NCBI GenBank assembly: GCA_030324005.1
Contig: JARDVH010000031.1
Span: 48,834,035-48,898,034 of the forward strand
Origin: Negaprion brevirostris
Taxonomy: Eukaryota
Direction: 5' to 3'
DNA length: 64,000 nt
Both the position numbers and the translations under genes were made by a program. Shown piece by piece: positions 1 through 57,667 of this stretch (the stretch's first letter is position 1; the number at the start of each line of letters is the position of its first letter). Below the pieces are notes generated by a model. It searched no databases, was not told the origin of the DNA, and worked only from the letters and a program-made list of their open reading frames with translations.

Positions 1-75
1 GTCCCAACTTGTTGGGACTCTGAATTGGCTTTAATTTGACTTGATTGGATTGGAATAAAGTAAACAAAAAAAAAA
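1..75 (+). repeat. 3' end of a second copy of the U2-headed repeat seen at 54.9-55.1 kb
   Basis: gttgggactctgaattggctttaatttgacttgattgga aligns with the minus-strand gttgagactttgaattggactttaattggatttgattgga at ~54898-54937; an A-rich tail follows. Confidence 0.55.
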
Positions 76-3872: not shown

Positions 3873-5018
3873 CAGCAAGGTACCGTATGGTAGGTTGTTG
3901 CATAAAATTAAATCTCACGGGATTCAGGGTGAGGTATCTAAATGGATACAAAATTGGCTTCTTGATTGAAGCCAGAGGGTTGTTGTAGAGAGTTGTTTTC
4001 CAAACTGGAGGCCTGTGACCAGTGGTGTGCCTNNNNNNNNNNGATCAGTGCTGGACCCACTGTTATTTGTCATTTATATTAATGATTTGTATGAGAATAT
4101 AGGGGGCATGGTTAGTAAGTTTGCAGATGACACCAAGATTGATGGCATAGTGGACAGTGAAGAATGTGATCAAGATCCCGTTGCAATTGGAGATCAATTG
4201 GGCCAGTGGGCTGACAAATGGCAGATGGAGTTTAATTCAGACAAATGAGCGGTGATGCATTTTGGTAGATTGAACCAGGGCAGAACTTATTCAGCTAATG
4301 GTAGGGCGTTGGGGAGAGTTACAGAACAAAGAGATCTAGGGATACATGGTTATAGCTCCTTGAAAGTGGAGTCACCGGTGGCCAGAGTGGTGAAGAAGGC
4401 ATTCAGCATGTTTGGTTTCATCGGTCAGAACATTGAATACAGGAGTTGGGACACTTGTTGGAAGTTGTACAAGACATTGGTAAAGCCACACTTGGAATAC
4501 TATGTGCAATTCTGGTCACCCTATTATACAAAGGATATTATTAAACTAGAAAAAGTACAGAAAAGATTTACTAGGATGCTACCGGGATTTGATGGATTTA
4601 GTTATAAGGAGAGGCTGAATAGACTGGAACTTTTTTCTCTGGAGCAGGGGAGGCTGAAGGGTGATCTTATAGAGGTCTGTACAATCANNNNNNNNNNNNN
4701 NNNNNNNNNNNNNNNNNNNNNNNNNNNNNNNNNNNNNNNNNNNNNNNNNNNNNNNNNNNNNNNNNNNNNNNNNNNNNNNNNNNNNNNNNNNNNNNNNNNN
4801 NNNNTCTGGAATAAGCTGCCAGAGGTAGTAATAGAGGTGGATACAATTTTATCTTCTAAAAAGCAATTACACAATTACATGGGTACGATGGGTATAGAGG
4901 GATTTGGGCCAAATCCAGGCAATTGGGATTAGTTTAGGGGTTTTAAAAAAAAAAAGGGTGGCATGGAGAAGTTGGGCCGAAGGGCCTGTTTCCATGTTGT
5001 CAACCTCTATGACTCTAT
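3873..5018 (+). mobile_element. CR1/HER1-like LINE, 5'-truncated, RT C-terminal half
   Basis: SGVP..SVL.PLLFVIYINDL, KFADDTKI, QWADKWQMEFN, LYKTLVKPHLEY.VQFWSP; tail ctctatgactctatg. Confidence 0.95.
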
Positions 5019-5250: not shown

Positions 5251-7900
5251 TGTTATATTTTAGATGTTTTGACTGGTAGTACTGGGTGATGAGGTGCTGC
5301 ACTGTGGGTTTTGAACCAACTCAATGCAGATTTATTTAAGAGCTGTTGCCAGATTGAAGTCCAACATGGAAGAGAAATAAAAACCTGTGAATGTCTTTGG
5401 TGATGTCACATCACATCATGTGCCTAATCTCACACACATGCATTGCTTTACAATACATAATGTCCCTCCCCGTTTACTTCAGTAGCACAACAGCAGACTT
5501 ATAAATGTTAATGATTATCCACTATAAATATCAGTTACATTACCAGATATTATTATCTACATATGTACAGTTAATACAAGACTCTTTTTGGCAGATGTTG
5601 ATTTTGTTTTGGTAACATATGATGTTCTGGGATATTCTCGATAGCCTGTTCCTCACAAATATCAAGTACTTCATCTTGTGAAGTAGCTTTGTTGTTATAT
5701 TCCAGAGATCTTGATTGTTCTGCTGGAGTAGAATCTGAACTTGGTTATGAAGTAACCCTTGTTGAAGGATTTCCCAACCGTGGGTGTCTGACGTAAGTCT
5801 TTCTGATACAGTTGTCACCAATTCACTCTTTGAAGTGAGGATTAGATCCGTGTGTCTTTGCCTATTCTCATGTCATCAAGTTGCACAATATAAGAAATTG
5901 GGTCTCTCTCAGTTAGAATGTTATAGATACCCACTTCTCACTTGTAGAGTAGTTTCTTGCTAAAACTCTTTCTCCTTGTTTAAAACTCCTCCATTTTGAT
6001 GTTTGTTCATGGCAAGAAACGTGTGCTTGTTGTTATCACTCTACTATTGTAATAGTGCCAGTGCCAAGGGTGTGTGGTCTGAGTGTGGCGGGGTGTGAGT
6101 ATGGTGGGGCTATGATGGGAGGGTGCTATGTACAATGACAGGGAGGCCCTATGTGAGGGGGGAGTTGTGCATGGCAAGGGGTGGAGGATTCCTGTTTTCA
6201 CGCTGTTATGACACTCAAAAATGTTTTGGGAAAATTGTTCCTGATGTTACTGGGACATTCTCTACCTGGTAGAAATATATAATCTGTTAATGTGATTCAG
6301 TTTTGTCCTAAAATGGCAATCTGTTTAATGCCAAAAATTATGTTAAGTTCTTCTTTCTCAAGTTGTACACAACTCTGTNNNNNNNNNNNNNNNNNNNNNN
6401 NNNNNNNNNNNNNNNNNNNNNNNNNNNNNNNNNNNNNNNNNNNNNNNNNNNNNNNNNNNNNNNNNNNNNNNNNNNNNNNNNNNNNNNNNNNNNNNNNNNN
6501 NNNNNNNNNNNNNNNNNNNNNNNNNNNNNNNNNNNNNNNNNNNNNNNNNNNNNNNNNNNNNNNNNNNNNNNNNNNNNNNNNNNNNNNNNNNNNNNNNNNN
6601 NNNNNNNNNNNNNNNNGTGTATTGGCTGTTCCTCTGCAGTTGCTATAATGTGAGATACAACAGTACCCAACCCATAGGACAATGCATCACAGGCTCGTTG
6701 AATTTTCAACTCTGGGTTAAAATGGACCAAAACCTAGGATTGCTTGAGCGTGTCTTTAACTCCTTTATATGCATTTTCAGACCCCTTCGTCAATTCCATT
6801 GTTGGTTAGCACACAATAAATTATGGAATAGCTATAGTAGTGTTGCAAGGTTTGGGATGAACTTCCCGTAATAATTGATGAGTCCTAAAAATGATCGCAC
6901 TTGTGACACATCCAGGATCGCTGTCATTTTCTTAGGTTCTTTGTGGAGGCTAACTGTGTCTATTCCAGGACCTAGATAATTGATGGATGATTTGAAAAAT
7001 TCATATTTTTCCTTCTTTACACAGAGGTTGTACTTCTCTGGATGCTTAGTGTTTCCCCTAAGTTGTGTAAATGTTCCTGTTGAATTTTGCCTGTGATTAG
7101 AATGCCATCCAAATAACACTGGACACTGTTGAGGCCAGTTAATATTTGGTCCAATGATTTCTGGAATATGGCCAGTGCCAATGTTATTCCAAATGGTAGG
7201 AGCTTATATTGGAACAATCCCTGTGGGTAACAGTTGTTAGCAGCAGTTGCAATTCAGTTGCCACCCTCAGCTGGATGTATGCTTGGGAAAATCTATCTTG
7301 CTGAACTGCTGATCACCAGCCAGTCCAGCAAATAAGTCCTCAATTAGTGGCAAAGGGTGATAGTCAACACAGAGTGGTGGATTTATTGTTGTCTTGAAGT
7401 ACCCATTGGAAACATATAGAACCATCAGATTTAATAACTGGAATGATTGGGGTTACCCAGTCATTCAGTGTTACAGGTTCAGTCACTTCATCCTTGCTGT
7501 CAACCAACTGGTCAATTGCTCCCTGGTTTAGGTTGATTTTGTGATCTTCCAGAGAGTGGGGAAAATTTTCCTTTACAATGTGCAGAGGCAATTCTATGAT
7601 TGACTTATTAGCTTCTACTTGAACCATGATATGTCCCTTCAGTGGAATTACCTCCTTGGTATAAGTTTGCAGAATTACACCTGAAGGTTTTAGTGGTAAG
7701 TGTTCAAGCTTCAGATTGCATACGTATTCTGGGAGCAGCTCCAAAGGTTCTGGGTTTATTTAAAGTTTGACAGAGAAGTAGTAAATATCTACTTTCATAT
7801 CCCCTTCATGGATCTAATTTCTTCAGAAGCATTCCATGTTTCCACATTTTCTCCAAATGCCTTAATGGCGCCGCTTTTGCCCGCTATCGCAGTTACCAGT
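5251..7900 (-). mobile_element. Decayed Gypsy (Ty3) LTR retrotransposon with probable 3' LTR at ~5251-5462
   Basis: Gag-like start (AFGENVETWN) near 7860; RT motifs WVTPIIPVIKSDGS, LPFGI..A.AIFQK..DQIL.GL..VQCYLDGILITG and VRSFLGLINYYGKFIPNLATL; RNase H ACDA.SYGLGTVVSH; integrase C-terminal GERVLARNY..EKW; purine tract ggggaggga next to the LTR. Confidence 0.9.
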
Positions 7901-8683: not shown

Positions 8684-10230
8684 CGAGAACAAAGAAAATT
8701 ACAGCACAGGAGCAGGCCCTTCGGCCCTCCGACCCTGCACCAATCATCTGCCTGACTTAACTAAAACCCCTTACCCTTCCAGGGACCATATCCCTCTATT
8801 CCCCTCTCATTCATGTACTTCGCAAGACGCCCCTTAAGTCACCACTGTACCTGCTTCCACTACCTCCCCCAGTAACCATTTCCAGGCACTCAGTGCTCTG
8901 TGTAAAAAAATCTGCCTCGTACATCTCTTTTAAACCTTGCCCCTCGCACCTGAAACCTATGCCCTTTAGTAATTGACTTTTCCACCCTGGGATAAAGCTT
9001 CTGACTATCCGTTCTGTCCATACCCCTCATAATCTTGTAGACATCAAAAAGGTCTCCCCTCAACCTTTGTTGCTCCAGTGAGAACAAACCAAGTTTCTCC
9101 AAACCCTCCTCACAGCTGATGCCCTCCATACCAGCCAACATACTGATAAAGCCTCCACATGCTTCTGGTGGAGAGGTGACCAGAATTGAACCCTCTATTC
9201 CAAGTGTGGCCTAATTAAGGTTCTATTAGACTCCAACATGACTTGGCAATTTTTAAACTCAGTGCCCTGGCCGATGAAGGCAAGCATGCTGTATGCCTTC
9301 TTTACTACCTTCTCCACCTGCATTGCCACTTTCAGTGACCTGTGTACCTGTACACCCAGATCCTTTTGCCTATCAATACTCTTAAGGGTTCTGCCATTTA
9401 CTGTATATTTCCTATCTGTATTAGACCTTCCTCACTTTGTTCAGATTAAACTTCATCTGCCATCTCTCCGCCCAAGTCTCCAACTGATCTATATCCTGCT
9501 GTATCCTCTGATGGTCCTTATCGCTATCCGCAAATCTACCAACCTTTGTGTCGTCCACAAAGTTACTAATCAATCCAGTTACATTTTCCTCCAAATCAAT
9601 TATATATATATTACAAACAGCAAAGGTTCCAGCACTGATCCTTGAGGAGCACCACTTGTCACAGCCCTCCATTCAGAAACACACCCTTCCACTACTACCA
9701 CCTGTCTTCTTTGACCAAGCCAGTTTTGTATCCACCTTGCTAGCTCATCTCTGAATCCATGCAACTTCACCTTCTGCACCAGTCTGCCAAGAGGGACCTT
9801 GTCAAAGGCCTTACTGAAGTCCATGTAGACAACATCCACTATCCTATCCTCATCAATCATCTTTGTGAGACATGACCTTAGGTTCGTGAGACATGACCTC
9901 CCCTTCACAAAACCATGTTGCCTCTCGTTAATACATACACTTATTTCCAAGTGGGAGTAAATCCTGTCTCAAAGAATCCTCTCTAATAATTTCCCTACCA
10001 CTGACTTCAGGCTCACCGGCCTGTAATTACCAGGATTATTCTTGTTATCCTCCTTAAACAAAGGAACAACCGTGCCTATTCTCCAATCCTCTGGGACCTT
10101 CCCTGTAGCCTGTGAGGATACAAAGATTTCTCTCAAGGTCCCAGCAATTTCCTCCCTTGCCTCTCTCAGTATTCTGGGGTATATTCCATCAGGCCCATGG
10201 GACTTGTCTACCTTAATGTTTCTCAAGAAT
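8684..10230 (-). mobile_element. CR1/HER1-like LINE, RT region to 3' end
   Basis: KSHGPDGIYPRILRE, NPGNYRPVSL, QHGFVKGRSCLTNL, VDVVYMDFSKAFDKVP, G.PQGSVL.PLLFVIY, FVDDTKV; frameshifted. Confidence 0.95.
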
Positions 10231-10417: not shown

Positions 10418-11035
10418 AAATTTGATTTATTATTGTTACATGAACTGGAATACAGTGAAAAGTATTGTTTCTTGCATGCTATACAGACAAAACACACTGT
10501 TCTTAGGGTACTTAGGGGAGAAGGAAAGGATAGGGTGCAAAATGTAGTACTGCAAATACAGGTAGAGTGAAAGGAAAGATAACATAAGGTGTGTCCATTC
10601 AAAATTCTGATGGTAGCAGGGAAGAAGCTGTTGAGTCATTTGATACATGTTTTTGTCTTTTTCCTAATTGAAGAAGATGGAAAAGAGTGTGTCCAGCATG
10701 CGAGGGATTCTTGATTATGCTGGCTGCTTTCATAAGGCAGCAGGAAGTGTAGATCAAGTCAATGGATGGGAGGTTAGTTTGCTCAATGGACTGGGCTTCA
10801 TTCATGACCCTTTGTAGTTTTTTGCAGTCTTGCTCAAAGCAGGAGTCATACCAAGCTGCGATACATCTGGGTAGGATGCTTTCTGTGGTGCATCTGTAAA
10901 AATTGCTAAGAATCATAGTGGACATGCTGAATTTCCTGAGCCTCCTGAGAAAGTAGAGGCATTGGTGGGCTTTTTTAACGTTTACGTCAGTGTGGAGGAT
11001 CCAGGACAGATTGTTGGTGATCTGAACACCTGAAC
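10418..11035 (-). mobile_element. Rex1/Babar-clade LINE 3' fragment
   Basis: NNLSW..H....VKKAHQCLYFLRRLRKF.MS...LSNFYRCT.ESIL..CI.AWY, the characteristic Rex1 C-terminal region; tail aataaatcaaa. Confidence 0.9.
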
Positions 11036-12490
11036 TAGAAACTACTGTATATTTTACCAGTCTGTGCAATCTTGCATTGATTAGCTGGAAAATTTCAAGG
11101 TGTTCAGTTACTCTAGCCTTAAATATAGGCTAATAATTTCTGACAGCTGACGTTAGGTTAATTGATTTTTAATTCCTTGGTTTCTGTCTTCTTGCCTTTC
11201 TTAAAAAGCTAAATGACATGCACAATTTTCTAATCTAAAATGATTCCAAATTAAGAAAGCTTTGGAAGATTATAGTTAGGGTTTCTGCAATATTCTCAAC
11301 TACTTTCTTTAAAACTTTGGATTGGAATCCACCTGGTTCCTGGGATTGGCACTCTTTTTTTTCCAATCTTCATTACTTATTATTTTGCTGACATTAATTT
11401 TGGTGATTCCCTCGCCCTGGATTATTCATAGCTTCCTCAGGATATTGGGCAAACCTTCCTCTTCCATGAGTGTACATACTACTGCAAAGTAATTATTCAG
11501 CATTAAACTTTTATTCAAGGTTTTCTTATTTTCATTGCCAATATCACCATATTCTATTTTCAAGGGTCCACATTACTCCCAACTCCCCTCTTTTTCCTGA
11601 TGACATAATTTTTTTTGTATTGATTTTGATCTCTCAAATTTCTTCTCATGCTCTCCTTTTGTTCAATGTCTGCTGTTCTTTGGAGCTGTACCATTTGATA
11701 GGATTGATACTGTTTTGAACAATGTTCCTTTGGGTCTTACGTTGTGTCTTAGCTCTTCAGTGCTCCAGTCCTTTTTTTGAAAGTTGAGCAATTGTCCCTT
11801 AGCAATACAAAACTTTAGTCTAACATTAAATCCACTTCCCACTGATCTTCAATCATTTTGCCCATTAACAAATTGCCCAGTTTTATGTGGGAGCTCTCTA
11901 TCTCATCTGAATTTAGAAACGAGAATCTTATAGCTGTTTTGCATTTTTCCTTTCAAACACAATGCTGAACTAGATCATATAACACAGCTGTCAGATAAAC
12001 ATTCACGTACCGTTAGATTGTTAACTAAATCTGGGTCACTTCTCATTACTAACTCTGATATGGCCTGTCTGCTTATTGATTCCAGGTCACATTGTGACAG
12101 GGAACTACCTGAATATACTCAAGTAATCTATTACCTTTTTGAAATATAATGGTCTACTTATCCCAATCTATATAAAAGCTAAAAACCTTCATTAAACCAC
12201 TCTGCCTTTTGTTACATATTTGTCTAATCACTGTATTTACATATTGTATCACTTCACAGCTGCTGCCAAGGGTCCAAAGCCCAATTCCCACTACAGTCTT
12301 GAATTCTCTTCTATTCCTGATTTCTAACTGCCTGCTTACTTCTCGTTATATCCTCTCTTAACATTGAAACAACTTACCTTGAATCATTACCACTGATCCT
12401 ACCCCACTAGTGTTTTTCCTATCTTTTCAGTAAAGTTTATAACCTGGTCTAACAATCCTGATCTCCTACAGCCATGTATCCATGACAATG

Positions 12491-29680: not shown

Positions 29681-31293
29681 CCTAACTGAGTGAGTTAGGG
29701 CAGCTTTCCTCCTGAGCCTACTCCCCAGAAACACAGATATCAAAAACAGATCCAAAACTGAGAGCTTCAGTTTCCTGACCACCACAGGAATCATACCATT
29801 CGGGACACGGAATTTGCAAAGATCCGTTGACCTCGGGTGGAATCGTCCGGTCTTAGGACAAGCGTGGCTGGAAAATTCTGCCCCTTGTCTGTCATGTGAT
29901 CTCCAGTCGATCACTTCTCCATCAGATAAAGTGATTGCAGTTCAAAAATACAGACATCTCCCCCACCTCCATTTCCCAAGTACAGTGCTGGTCAGTTGAT
30001 TTCTTAGAAAAGATATGCTCATAACTTCATCTTGAATTGTTATGACCTTTTAAAAAAAATCAAGTGTCAAAATGTAATGTCCTTCCATATTTTAAAAGAA
30101 AAGTACAGTTTATGAAAATATAGTTTTCTCAAAGTAGTGTGTCCCCTGCCTTTTAGACTAGATAGACTGTCATTCGTGAAGGCAGATGGGAATTCTACCA
30201 GCTGCACTTATGTCAGCCAAGTTGGATCTCAGGCATTTCCAGTGTCTTGTTTTCAGTGATTAAGGGTCTGGACTAGGGCAAATTAATTCCCACATGTGCT
30301 CCACAAATTCAAATCTTACTTGCTATTACCTTTGCCCATATCCTGCACTTTTACTCTTTGCTGCTATTTTCAGACCATTTGCCATCTCTGCAATGTGAAC
30401 ACACAAGTTGTCCCAACTTGGTCAACATGTCCCTTTTCATGTTCTAAATCATCTGTCCATTACCTCCCTCATTCTCTACTTTTGAAGGTGAATGTGTTTC
30501 CTCATCTGCCATCAATTAAACTTTAATCTTAGCCAGACATTTAAAATGGTGTCAAAGTCTTGTGATTGTTGTTCCTTGAGTACAGCCTTGGATCTTGTTT
30601 GTCTCCCTTGTGGGGACCTCAAATTGGATTCATTTGGAATGGAGTTGGGTTTGCCCGGTCCATTCTGAGCTTTGGCTTTGTAACTTTAAGAATGGAGTAC
30701 TGAGCAGGGTCTTTAGTTTCTACACTATTTGGCTATGGATCAGCAAATTGGCTAACACGGCTTCCTCTAACAGCTATGCCAGATTGATTACAACCTGGGT
30801 GAATAAAATAGGGAAGTGCTGGCCATTTCTTAGCAACAGTTAAATCTGTGCCACAAGCTCTAATTCTAAATCTTCTTCTAAATGAGCAACTATAATATAT
30901 AATATTGTTTTCTGTGTCTGAACTCCACCTGTATTTTTATTCATGTTATATGAGCATCACTGACAGTCAGCATTTATTGCCTATCCCTAATTGCCCTTGT
31001 TAAAGCTATCCGCTTTGTTGAAGCGTTAATTTGTCTTTTATTTGAACCTGATTTGTCTTTCACAACGAGCCAGAAATCTCCAGCAGGGTAGATAAACCAA
31101 CGACGAAGGATATGGCCTCACAGATTTTCTTTCCTGGGGCAGCTGCCACATTCATCATATGGTATCCCTCAATTATAATGATCTATCTGCTTGCTGAAGG
31201 ATATTGTTCTCTTTATGTTTCTCTCCCACAAATAAACCCAGCTAAACGTTGATTTAATTATTTCTTCGATTTGATGCCCAGTGGGAAAAATAC

Positions 31294-52799: not shown

Positions 52800-53390
52800 T
52801 AAGTAAGTCCAAGGAAAGGGGTGATTGTGGATGTAAGGGGCCCATTGTAAAAGATCTTCATGGATCTTGGATTTGTAGTTGGCTGGACTGTCAAGTAAAA
52901 TTGTGGATGTGATCTCCACTCCAACCAGTTGTTTATTAAAAATGGCAAAAAGCATAAATCTTGTCTTGGGTGACAAGAAGATATTGATAGAATGGTCAAA
53001 TAGGCAGATAAATGGCAAACAGAATTTAACCCTGATAAATGTGAGGTGATGCACTTTGGAAGGAGTAATTTCACAAGGAAGCACTCAATGAATGGTAGGA
53101 TATTTAGAAGTTCTGTGGAACAAAGGGACCTTGGCATATTTGTCCACAGATCTCTGAAAGCGGAAGGCATGTTAGTAGGGTAGTAAAAATGGCACATGGG
53201 ACACTTGCCTTTATCAATTGAGGCATAGATTACAAAAGCAGAAAGTCATGTTGGACTTGTACAGAACTTTGGTGAGGCCACAGCTAGAGTATGGTGCATA
53301 GTTCTGATCAGTACATTATAAGAAGGATGTGATTGTACTGGAGGACACATAGAGGCAGTTTACCAGGATGCTGCTTGGGATGTAACATTT
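52800..53390 (+). mobile_element. CR1 LINE fragment
   Basis: ADKWQ.EFNPDKCEVMHFGR, QRDLG..VHRSLK, LYRTLVRPQLEY. Confidence 0.88.
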
Positions 53391-54230
53391 AGGGGCAATT
53401 TTACCATTTTTTTCTAAGTGCGGGACGGTCTTGAAACTGGGAGAGTTTCAGATCTGTCATTTGAGTGTGTTTTTAGGTCCCCCCCTTACGTAATCTGCCT
53501 GCAAAATGTTGAGCAAGTCTGTTGCTCGCTGCAGAAACCTGTGGGTGGTTCTAAACATGTCCAAAAGCTTGCAGACGGAGGTGGTGCACATGTGCTGGCC
53601 TCTGATGCTGCACATGCGCATTAGCAATAGCAGGGGTCTGACAGAAAAGAGAAAGCTGTCAGGCACCTGCTGGTGCAGGCAGTCTGGAGCAGTTCCCCTC
53701 ACTGAAATCACAGGGGCTTGCAGCCTGAGAAATAGTCCCTGCTGAGCACCCCTCACCACCCAGAATGAGCGCAGAACTCCCCTCCACCAATCGCGGACCT
53801 GCCATCCTCCCCCGAATGATTGCTGCAGAGTGGCAGAGGGACCCTTTTCCCTCTTCCCTCCCCACCCCCCCGTCACGATCCTTGCAGAGTGGCAGTGGGC
53901 CCCCTCCCCCCATTAGCCCACCTCTGGCACTTCCCAGTGGGCATTGCCCAGGTGCCAGACACCAGTCTGGCACACCCCAAGGAGTACCCTCCTTGCCCTT
54001 GGGCCTTCCCGGGGGCCTCAGTAGCCTCCAGTTCCACCAGCGAGGTGAAGTTGACTGCTCCCCATTCATGGTGAGCATTTCTATTCCTTACCGGTGAGGA
54101 CCTTTCCCGATGAGTTCAGAAAAGGGGCTGAGCCCGGACAATTGAGTGCTGGGCTCAGTAAGCAGATGTAAAACAGCATTAAAATAAATTTACATACATT
54201 AACCTGCCTCTCACCCATTTCCTCATGGGT
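53391..54230. mobile_element. Harbinger-type non-autonomous element
   Basis: Starts ggggcaattttacca; 53930-54170 resembles the arms of the 42.7-kb element. Confidence 0.6.
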
Positions 54231-54889
54231 CTCATGCAGCTGTTCACCTACTCTACTTTTACGTCCTGGCTCTCCAGCCACAATCAGAGACTTCAATTTG
54301 TCCTATTCACAGCCTTGGTTCCTCAACACAGTGACTCATCAATCCTGAACTTCTGTTCCAGCCCCTTGCGGCAGCCTGTACTCTCTCTCTTGCTGTCTCT
54401 CTCCATAAGGGTTATTCTCCCTCTTCCTCCTCCAGCCCATGCTCCTACCTCAGGTTCTACTCTCCCAAATTGCCAAGGACTTTGATTCTGGTCCCAAGGG
54501 GAGCCCTGGGGAATGACCAGGTCTCCTGCTTGTCATCCCTAGCCAACAATTGCTGCTACAGGGACCTTGTGCCCTGCAGGAATGATCTGCAGTTGGCACA
54601 GCCCTGTCTCCTGCCCCACTCCAAAGCTAGAAGTCAGGACATTGAAGGTCTGCTCACCTCCCCAACTACATTAGCATGACTTGAGGCGAATATACATAAT
54701 ATAACATGAGCCCTAGTGATCATTGATTTCATGACTGCAGAAATTAATGTCGTCCACTTTTTCCATTGTTTTTCCTTTGAACCAGTTCTGATATAGAAGA
54801 ACTAGTGTTTATGTTTCATTTCCAGTGAAGGCACTGGTGACCCAACTAATAGGCTATTTCTATGTCCTTGTCTATTTTCTGTTTTCTTT

Positions 54890-55085
54890 CAGTTATGTCC
54901 AATCAAATCCAATTAAAGTCCAATTCAAAGTCTCAACCAGCGCGACATTACAGATCCAAGCTGACAAGACAGGCTGCCCTCTTCCTGTCTTGGGCTTGAT
55001 CTGCATGATCCAAGCTGATAGGAGCAGGAATTGCACCCCCTCCAGTGCTTGATCTTGTTTGCATCTTAGCCAAAAGGCCTAAATA
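54890..55085 (-). repeat. U2 snRNA-headed short repeat with two tandem hairpins
   Basis: GGCCTTTTGGCTAAGAT (55079-55063) equals U2 nt 11-27; then two AGATCAAG...TCAGCTTGGATC units; tail shared with positions 1-60. Confidence 0.65.
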
Positions 55086-56727
55086 CTGTTTTTAAAAAAA
55101 TAATTCAAATGAAGCCTCAGTGCAACCTCATTGACTTCTATCAAGTGTATTTTCTATGTTGTACATTTCAGATACAGTGATATGCTTAGAGATTATTTTG
55201 ATACAAATCAATGAGGTTAGAGGACAGGTGTCACATGATATATTTCAGATTTAGAGTAGCATATATCTACTATTTAGCACTTTACTGCCACTTAATACCT
55301 AGATTTTTATCTTGGCTACGAAAAAGGTCACAAAACACAGCTCACTTAAGTGGTGGATATTACAATGAACATTTTAATAGCACATGCAAATTCTGAAAGT
55401 AAGTACTGGAAGCTGGTTTTACACATGGGCCTGATTCTAGTTCTGGATCTGCAACGGGAGATTAACAGACAATGCGTGCCCAACAGTCACCCATTATTAT
55501 CAGCTTGTGGCCTGGACTTTAATTACATGCTTTCAGAAAGCTGCCATTGTCAAACAAACGTTCCAAGACGTCTGTGTTTGGGGAGATTGGGAAATGGGCA
55601 GACTTCAGTGGGAAGCTAGCTGACATTTAGAGTGTCCTTGTTCCTCCTGGCCGAACAAGAATAAAAGTTTAAAAAAAAATCTTCGGCTGCGTTCTGAGTG
55701 GCCACCAATAATTTGGTTAGACCTTTGATTAACCTACTAAATGTTGGTAGAAATGTGTAGAGCATGCATGGTGCATGTTTTCCAAACATTTTTCTTAGTT
55801 GTCATCAGTGTTCTATCTTTGTGTATATTTATCTTACATTGAATTTCGAGCATAGATACAGGTCCATTTGCCTAACTGGTCTTTTCTAGTTTTTATCCTG
55901 CACCTGATCTTCCTATAACATTTACTTCACATCTAACTTTATCAGCATATCCTTCTGTTCCCTTCTGTCACATACTTTCCCTTAAATGCATCTATGCTAT
56001 TTCCCTCAACCACTTCATGTGGTAGCAAATTCACATTCCCAGGACCTCTCTTTGCATTTTACAAGTGACCTCCCTTCAGAAATGGATGAGGTGTCTGGTT
56101 TCCCATCTGAGAATCCTCTATTAATTGGTAAGTGACTCAATGTTGATACTGTCTCATTTAATTATATCCAGCTACAAAACAAAAAAAAGTGGCACTATTT
56201 TTCTTCAGAGCAGTGTTGGGCACAATGTTATTATGTATTTTGAAAGGTAGCTGGTGTAGTTTGAAATTTTGTTGCTTACGTTATGTAACCGATAAATAAA
56301 TATCTTTCATTAACAGGATTTTTAAATGCCTAGTCAGCAATTTTTTTCTAAATGCTGATTAATTTATACAATCGTTTCACTGTCAGGATAAAGTGACAGA
56401 TTGCCATGAGAAAATATCACAGTTACTTGAAATCTGAAATTTAAACAAATCTGAAAATGGTGGAAACATCATAGCTGTTCAAACAGCATTTATGGAGAGA
56501 GATGAAGTTAGGGTTAACATTTCAGTCCTTTGACCATTTATCAGAACAGGTTTGTAGACCAGTAAATCTACTTTCTCCTCTCCACAGATGTTGTCTGACC
56601 TTCACTGCGCCTCCTGCATTTTCTTGATATAATGAGGTTTAGGTCGCCCATAATTGCCAAATTTTCATAAATGGAAGCTAGAAATGGCCAGATATTACAT
56701 AAAGTTGAGTGAATGTATATCCTGTAC

Positions 56728-56886
56728 CTGACTGTATTGGAAATTAACTTGCAATGCATCAGGTTGGCAGCAGGTGTTCTGAGCCAGCAAAATGGTTCCT
56801 TTTCACATAAACTAGCATGGTGACCAGGATGGATAACGTCCATTGAAAGATTTATGATTCTTTCAGGCTTAGTTAAGAAAGAAGAA
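56728..56886 (-). CDS. Candidate 159-nt exon (SSFLTKPERIINLSMDVIHPGHHASLCEKEPFCWLRTPAANLMHCKLISNTV)
   Basis: tatttcag acceptor, gtacag donor, single open frame, phase 2 to 2, unique sequence. Confidence 0.4.
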
Positions 56887-57667
56887 CTGAAATATATGAA
56901 ACTCCTGATATATTCAACAAGTGAGAGATAGAGTATTATGTTGTAGGTCTTTTCAATGATGGAACTATTTATGTAACAGCACATACTGATTTTAAAAAAA
57001 TGATATTCTGCAGAAAGCTGCTTTCTGAAATCGCTCAACAGAATCAAAGGGAACAAGAAGAAAATGAACCTAGATGGTTTTGAAATAGTTTTAGACTGCT
57101 TAACTGAGAATTGTGCTTTGCATTACAAAATTATTTATGAACATATTGTAATGGAACTACAAAATTGACATTGATAAAGCAATAACTCAGAGAGCTTAGT
57201 TATAAAGGAACAGTGAACAGCAATGAATTAGCAGCTTGTTAGGGTAGCAAGTAACAATCATTGTGAAAAGTGGGGAAAACCGTAGCAGAGGGTAAAAGTT
57301 TAGAACTAAATGCACTCCCAGTAGAATGATTGAAAGGTAATGAAGACCAAGAGGAACTGAGCGTCTATTGTAAAAATGATAGATATCCCATTTATATGTC
57401 TCTAAAGAAACAAGGCACTATAATTTTCATGGAAAGGGACATTTCCAAGCAGCACACAGGAATGAAAAATCAATTACTAATGTTTAAGAGGGTCAGTGCT
57501 TTTCCGGGCATGTTGAAAAGTAAAGAAACCTTTGGGTAGTAAAATTGTTCCTTGCCAAATTTATAATAAAGTTTAGGATTGAATCAAGCAGACATGTTGC
57601 CAGTAGCTGATTTGCAATATAAAGACAAAACAAAGGAAACCAATGTAATGCTTAAAAACATCTCCAT

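Follow-up and report, generated by a model that had tools for sequence, protein, structure and literature searches.

A 5'-truncated SINEU-type mosaic of U2, U4 and, in older copies, U1 snRNA pieces in Negaprion brevirostris, likely mobilised by a Keno-like Tx1 element from sources in U2 genes

The stretch of DNA analysed here (the window) is 64,000 nucleotides of the Negaprion brevirostris assembly GCA_030324005.1, and its list of open reading frames contains no evident host gene. Fragments resembling, by eye, CR1/L2 reverse transcriptases and an LTR-retrotransposon pol lie at 4249-4932, 6832-7759, 9600-9968 and 10599-11129. The element that concerns us lies on the minus strand, and its parts, together with two related fragments elsewhere in the window, are as follows.

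54881..55147, minus strand: whole element copy, a 5'-truncated member of subfamily A that aligns to family positions 50-305 at 93%
55148..55155, minus strand: 5' candidate target-site duplication, 8 bp exact, or 11 bp with one mismatch, in which case it overlaps the element start
55140..55147, minus strand: remnant of the mask linker, antisense to U2 nt 25-39
55111..55141, minus strand: U4-derived 5' stem-loop (U4 nt ~20-47; z 4.1 against host U4)
55089..55105, minus strand: Sm-site-like T-run judged by sequence, non-canonical and decayed in this copy
55063..55079, minus strand: internal piece of U2, an exact match to nt 11-27 where the family has nt 4-27
55007..55055, minus strand: hairpin unit 1, a duplicate of unit 2
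54952..55002, minus strand: hairpin unit 2, whose loop and 3' arm are diverged U2 nt ~23-62 with a mutated branch guide
54891..54951, minus strand: tail from U2 nt ~60-110, eroded into short repeats in this copy
54881..54890, minus strand: decayed poly(A)
54870..54880, minus strand: 3' candidate target-site duplication
1..75, plus strand: 3' end of a second copy, of subfamily B type, with its tail, polyadenylation signal and poly(A)
30587..30700, plus strand: piece of a sister family of simpler build, which has a single unit and whose U2-like tail is longer

A first-pass annotation had described this element as headed by a 17-nt match to U2. The match is exact against the host's own U2 (nt 11-27, at 55079-55063 on the minus strand, z 7.2 against shuffles) and is kept across the family as an internal piece of U2 nt 4-27, but it is not the head: the copy begins at 55147, another 67 nt upstream, and even there it is cut short at its 5' end, with the first ~49 nt of the family (the U2 head and the greater part of its mask) missing. 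The 17-mer is thus a second, internal U2 piece. The two units of ~50 nt that had been noticed at 55055-55007 and 55002-54952 do fold back on themselves (RNA z -2.35 and -2.88, with 6/200 and 2/200 shuffles folding as well), the perfect inner pair of unit 2 is present over 9 bp, and the tail is indeed related to the start of the window (79% over 66 nt, at window 1-70). The U4 piece, a U1-headed subfamily and the antisense masks are features beyond those first noticed. The U4-derived stem-loop at 55111..55141 contains a tandem GA/GA core, which we take to be a kink-turn. The target-site duplication of the window copy is of modest length (8-11 bp) and is only a candidate, since chance could explain it.

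The suggestion that the element is dispersed was borne out by a search of its own genome, in which 40 of 1,843 candidates were scored and yielded 46 matches; a 19-mer taken from unit 2 has 1,540 exact hits (control 0). Of 97 copies identified independently of this 19-mer, 32 keep it exactly, giving roughly 4,700 copies in total, a rough figure given that the sample favours well-preserved copies and that sequence is duplicated in the assembly where gaps begin or end. The family is a ~305-bp poly(A)-tailed retroposon, with elements of 304-381 bp and no coding frame. Clustering placed 102 of 107 near-full copies in four subfamilies with shared junctions, leaving 5 outliers; in these samples, which are biased to best hits, identity to the majority sequence is 86% in the old subfamily (n=30), 88% in subfamily A, the window's type (n=21), 89% in C (n=14) and 91% in B (n=37). 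Sequencing runs containing at least half of the sampled words span four studies and three organism labels, one of which is possibly the source, so that the family probably occurs beyond this assembly; among the runs listed none was of RNA. HE1-like SINE flanks are in keeping with a shark or ray. There is also a sister family of simpler, one-unit build, possibly the closest to the ancestor, which is represented at window 30587-30700 (plus strand), L021:914-1052, L254 and L265, with a U2-like tail reaching ~U2 nt 135; in L254 and in L265 the copy terminates in poly(A), U2 39-53 and a further poly(A).

Retroposition has left its marks in the poly(A), in 5' truncation and in 5 pairs of copies arranged in tandem. 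Among 112 copies with clean flanks, 17 have target-site duplications of 10-17 bp (one being a tandem artefact), compared with 4.2 (maximum 8) when flanks were swapped; most copies (95/112) have none by the rule used. An LTR or Penelope end was considered and is excluded by the poly(A), the 5' truncation and the snRNA heads. That the family is a SINE is near certain. Where the element had been proposed as a U2-derived SINE or ncRNA family, the part that stands is an snRNA-derived, SINEU-like dispersed family, while a functional ncRNA family is unsupported.

Using host U2, U4 and U1 genes from the same genome as the reference for all comparisons, the old subfamily runs from U1 nt 1-95 (with a short deletion) through a 39-nt linker, U4 nt 23-47 (z 9.3; 22/25 identical in L166), a T-run and U2 nt 4-31 (z 12.2) to unit 1, unit 2 with the tail, the polyadenylation signal and poly(A). 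Subfamilies A, C and B have U2 nt 1-38/40 and a short linker in place of the U1 head and its linker, and the U4 5'-stem-loop piece or a remnant of it occurs in all subfamilies. For 61 of 80 copies of A, B and C, a sample biased to best hits, the U2 head has its start somewhere in nt 1-15. Further 5' snRNA additions have occurred recurrently (L021b, L082, L143 and L161), as in the change from U1 head to U2 head between subfamilies. An intact kink-turn core is found in 16/30 old, 13/21 A, 5/14 C and 0/37 B copies and, having been lost in so many and from B altogether, it is dispensable.

In the oldest subfamily, unit 2 and the tail are colinear with host U2 nt 19-114 (z 10.6) and the tail's descent from U2 nt ~60-110 is clear, whereas in A, C and B so little of the 3' similarity to U2 survives that it is at best close to significant (z 1.3-2.6). 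We therefore read the units and tail, from their alignment, as duplicated and diverged U2 with the guide mutated in place. It had been thought that the branch-point guide was replaced by two hairpins; the units do descend from the part of U2 around the guide, but the guide was mutated where it stood and no foreign hairpins came in. Family copies also open with a separate U2 head whose branch-point guide is intact. Other assignments that we considered were set aside. A U1 origin of the hairpin units, sense or antisense, gave scattered p-values in single copies, with majority sequences null except for one 16-nt match in subfamily A, and was rejected in favour of U2. Neither T-run of the majority sequences fits the Sm consensus, and an Sm-assembly model was rejected on this basis. 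An Rfam match of L166 to MIR399 was taken to be a chance hairpin. A functional U2 snRNA variant gene would be expected to have a full-length U2 fold above the Rfam cut-off and an upstream snRNA promoter, but a search of 53000-57000 gave no U2 hit at the window copy, the four matches returned being at chance level (snoRNA). Full copies scored 35.8 and 31.4 bits against 46, with no Rfam match above the gathering score.

The linkers that follow the heads are head-specific. That of A, C and B runs antisense to U2 nt 25-39 (z 3.9, 4.4 and 4.4; U1 control z 0.7-1.2), whereas the old subfamily's linker matches U1 nt 2-29 in antisense, with z 5.1 and, for the U2 control, z -1.2. The helices predicted for the four subfamilies comprise 11, 12, 15 and 26 pairs, and in the majority sequences the guide is predicted to be paired at 6/6 bases in B, at 4/6 in A and C, and over most of U1 3-11. 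Host U2 and U1 folded in the same way are predicted to leave the guide largely open. Among single copies with an intact guide, predicted pairing averages 0.74 (n=5), 0.66 (n=4), 0.89 (n=19) and 0.64 (n=3). Each head type is thus predicted to carry its own antisense mask, which would hide the splicing guide. Wherever the B mask deviates from the exact complement, at six positions, a G-U pair is still formed (P ~0.002), but such pairing-preserving changes (A>G, C>T) could instead come from RNA editing or CpG decay.

The hairpins are conserved. Over the four subfamilies, 90.9% of cells are paired in a set of 35 copies chosen because their 3' arms are intact, compared with 30-46% when slid, and the loops have been rewritten between subfamilies. 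The first-pass annotation had suggested that the hairpins covary; in these same 35 copies covariation was no higher than in shuffles (238 of 500), one pair having changed on both sides between subfamilies and three having gone from wobble to standard.

Selection may have acted on the masks to spare splicing, a proposition that we place at about even. Alternatively, masks and hairpins may both be by-products of fold-back copying that were kept for RNA stability or by chance, a view that competes with the splicing-protection step alone and to which we give somewhat less than an even chance. A single habit of one enzyme could yield both inverted linkers, two guide bases stay open under the A and C masks, and the loss of the kink-turn core from B indicates that borrowed structure can be dispensed with; the lack of covariation above shuffles points the same way. 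Copying by-products would not so readily account for two head types that each have a matching mask over the guide, for six of six changes in the B mask that keep pairing, or for hairpin arms that kept pairing far above the slid control while their loops were being rewritten.

Turning to where the element came from, 41 of 48 copies have a U2 head that stops at nt 37-40. A strict pattern of poly(A) followed by U2 from nt 39 onward identified 5 junctions at 4 loci and a looser version gave 19 hits (control 1). Upstream of these 19 junctions lies the SINE in 5 cases by BLAST and 2 more by its tail only, and a Tx1-type LINE in 5 cases plus 1 by eye; the rest comprise one U2 1-37 with an A-run, one that is unassigned and 4 without a recognisable element. 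At L254, L257, L265, L268 and L269 only U2 39-50/55 follows the SINE, after which there is a new A-run or flank. Such stretches of U2 39-~53 behind dispersed SINE copies are what 3' transduction from a template inside a U2 gene would leave. Copies at L143 and L161, which have U2 to nt 52 and 49 in front, would fit such a template too, and the arrangement at L259 (Tx1, poly(A), U2 39-52, Tx1) implies a 14-bp duplication.

Two loci also retain sequence from upstream of U2 genes directly before U2 1-37 and the SINE: L085, which lies 18 kb from the main U2 gene (80% over 88 nt), and L082, where the flank is that of an array-type gene (79% over 149 nt). No intact source locus with promoter, whole SINE and the rest of U2 was seen, L085 and L082 ending in a gap or contig end. 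Among the 112 near-full copies picked by other routes none has U2 39-48 behind it, and just 1 of 116 SINE-selected loci adjoins Tx1, so U2-linked copies are a small minority. We consider it likely, from these junctions and flanks, that source copies of the SINE lodged inside U2 genes between nt 38 and 39.

A tandem array of variant U2 genes with a 492-bp period, 84% identical to main U2, occupies L037-L039 and L250-L251, and flanks of this array type are met again beside the Tx1 and SINE insertions of L082, L096 and L106. Three high-scoring U2 genes (L033:991-1183, L034:672-864 and L035), two of them on short contigs, are ~80% identical to host U2 with an extra base before the guide, and are possibly DNA of another organism in the assembly. 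Dispersed retrocopies of U2, U4 and U1 are also numerous (L036, L040-L047, L108-L115, L119-L124), several having downstream gene flank and A-rich ends.

The Tx1-type LINE was found by a zf-RVT search, with RVT_1 and zf-RVT both present in a 64%-identical homolog (P0001). Its endonuclease region is matched by tblastn in L246, and by eye it contains motifs that we take to be of APE type. Kinship with named Keno elements is judged from domains and the U2 site, the two homologs found being unnamed, and the two longest copies are truncated or gapped such that the 5' end is not reached. The 3' end of Tx1 is joined to U2 nt 39 at L096/L255, L106, L259, L260 and L262, and to nt 43 at L082; none of 18 Tx1 3' ends read by eye had U2 after it. 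The SINE and Tx1 share a site in U2 (nt 38|39), and Keno, one of the elements named at first pass, was the relevant LINE.

The two elements also occur close together. Of 29 Tx1-selected loci, 3 have the SINE within 35 nt of Tx1, and 4 of a further 22 (from 30) have both in one locus across gaps; set against an expected proximity of ~0.6% this gives P ~4e-8, although the calculation is rough. Partner LINE and SINE have no long tail in common, being alike only in a 10-nt stretch around the polyadenylation signal. Tx1 is not strictly specific for U2 genes, as most copies are dispersed and one lies in a U4 gene. In that U4 gene cluster (L116 / L248:3774-4895) a truncated Tx1 splits the gene and is accompanied by a duplication of ~14 bp of U4; ~280 bp upstream there is a SINE copy in the opposite direction. 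A further LINE, an uninterrupted 1,273-aa endonuclease-RT-zf frame at L089:249-4067 (plus strand) on a 5.3-kb contig, is 24-37% identical to Tx1; it is a different family and possibly foreign DNA. Taken together, it is likely that a Keno-like Tx1 element mobilises the SINE.

We therefore favour, with reasonable though far from complete confidence, a reading in which the window copy is a 5'-truncated SINEU-type mosaic of U2, U4 and, in older copies, U1, mobilised by a Keno-like Tx1 from sources in U2 genes and equipped with a linker predicted to mask the guide in its head. The Tx1 protein would put a SINE copy into the Keno site of a U2 gene, whose external Pol II promoter would then yield an RNA starting at U2 +1, with U2 nt 1-38 as the head. 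This RNA would end at the SINE polyadenylation signal, or sometimes slightly downstream so as to take along U2 nt 39-~53, and the Tx1 reverse transcriptase, with relaxed specificity, would paste copies of it mostly at dispersed sites. Selection would have kept the head-specific masks and the folded, mutated internal guides, such that the RNA would not compete as a decoy in splicing. Most likely the window copy is an inert dispersed product of this relaxed Tx1 pasting.

The same SINE could also have acquired its heads by template switching from free U1 and U2 snRNA, with sources transcribed from flanking promoters and the copies in U2 genes being dead ends, although we regard this as unlikely. 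Stacked and mixed heads, such as U2 1-18 with U1 5-30 and U2 in L021b, and doubled heads in L082, L143 and L161 would be natural products of such switching, and a U2 promoter leaves the U1 head and the U4 piece unexplained. That none of the 112 ordinary copies carries downstream U2 also sits well with it, and template switching with flanking transcription is the explanation favoured for crocodilian SINEU by Kojima 2015 (PMC4494074). Heads acquired in this way should end at scattered positions, as in SINEU-2 with its 22-nt spread, whereas here they cluster at the Keno site, although a single ancestral event could also have fixed the end there. The dispersed copies trailing U2 39-~53, which need a template inside U2, also count against template switching.

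A functional variant-U2 or guide ncRNA gene family, with hairpins presenting modular guides, is very improbable, although a functional master locus may exist: the stable hairpins with variable loops and the kink-turn core intact in 13/21 copies of the window's subfamily have to be set against dispersed copies that differ by 9-14% from their majority sequence, end in poly(A) and in many cases lack their 5' part, against U2 promoter flanks that among stored loci are matched only by U2 genes and U2-linked loci, and against the absence of any Rfam match above the gathering score.

If the reading with sources in U2 genes is correct, a broader one may be considered, tentatively and at rather less than even odds: a vertebrate SINE lineage living on snRNA gene promoters in which a head-specific mask evolved twice, over the U1 5'-splice-site guide and then over the U2 branch guide, because RNA left without a mask would act as a decoy for the splicing machinery. 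Such a lineage would explain how transcription of SINEU-type elements comes about, and it would represent selection on a selfish RNA towards harmlessness to the spliceosome. U2-gene sources at the Keno site would make the first of these answers concrete, with L085, L082 and the transduction footprints as the places to look. The family would also offer a natural experiment in how an RNA with U1 or U2 guides avoids disturbing splicing.

Among known systems the closest are SINEU-1/-2/-3, which Kojima 2015 (PMC4494074) describes from crocodilians only, having found none elsewhere, derives from U1 and U2, and leaves open as to transcription. The relevant passages of PMC5381603, PMC12054243, PMC5786205, PMC4758252 and PMC5753468 repeat this account or list the class, and those of two chondrichthyan papers (PMC5499810, PMC10468316) make no mention of an snRNA-derived SINE. 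We found no snRNA-mosaic SINE outside crocodilians in the literature, although subscription journals, Repbase Reports or Dfam may hold one; the present family would extend snRNA-headed SINEs beyond crocodilians and add U4 as a donor. By description rather than by sequence, SINEU-1/-2/-3 resemble our family in being short (<500 bp), with U1- or U2-derived heads, recurrent head addition, poly(A) and internal T-runs, in the partial duplication within snRNA pieces, the rearranged U2 (as in SINEU-3) and the tandem insertions, and in an insertion target common to the SINE and a Tx1 family of the Keno branch. They differ in that the donors named there are U1 and U2 only, whereas U4 contributes here too, and in that the target there is Mariner-N4 rather than the U2 Keno site. 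The site-matched head ends, U2-flank transductions and head-specific masks seen here are absent from the SINEU main text.

Keno and Utopia insert ~37 nt into U2 with a 3' flank from nt 39, according to the relevant passages (PMC6136364; PMC4640811, section 6). The partner LINE shares with Keno, as described there, its reverse transcriptase, zf-RVT, APE-type motifs and 3' end at U2 nt 39; Keno is a U2-specific member of the Tx1 clade, whereas the LINE here is mostly dispersed, has one U4 copy (L116) and appears to have the SINE as a passenger. Unlike Keno, the SINE itself encodes no protein. R2 and R2-derived short elements sit in 28S rRNA genes, where they are transcribed by Pol I and the target's 5' piece is cut off by a ribozyme. 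Our SINE would be similar in being a promoter-less element that depends on co-transcription with a target RNA gene, as is stated for R2 in PMC4494074. It would differ in using a Pol II snRNA promoter and in keeping the target's 5' piece as its head, and it has thousands of dispersed copies.
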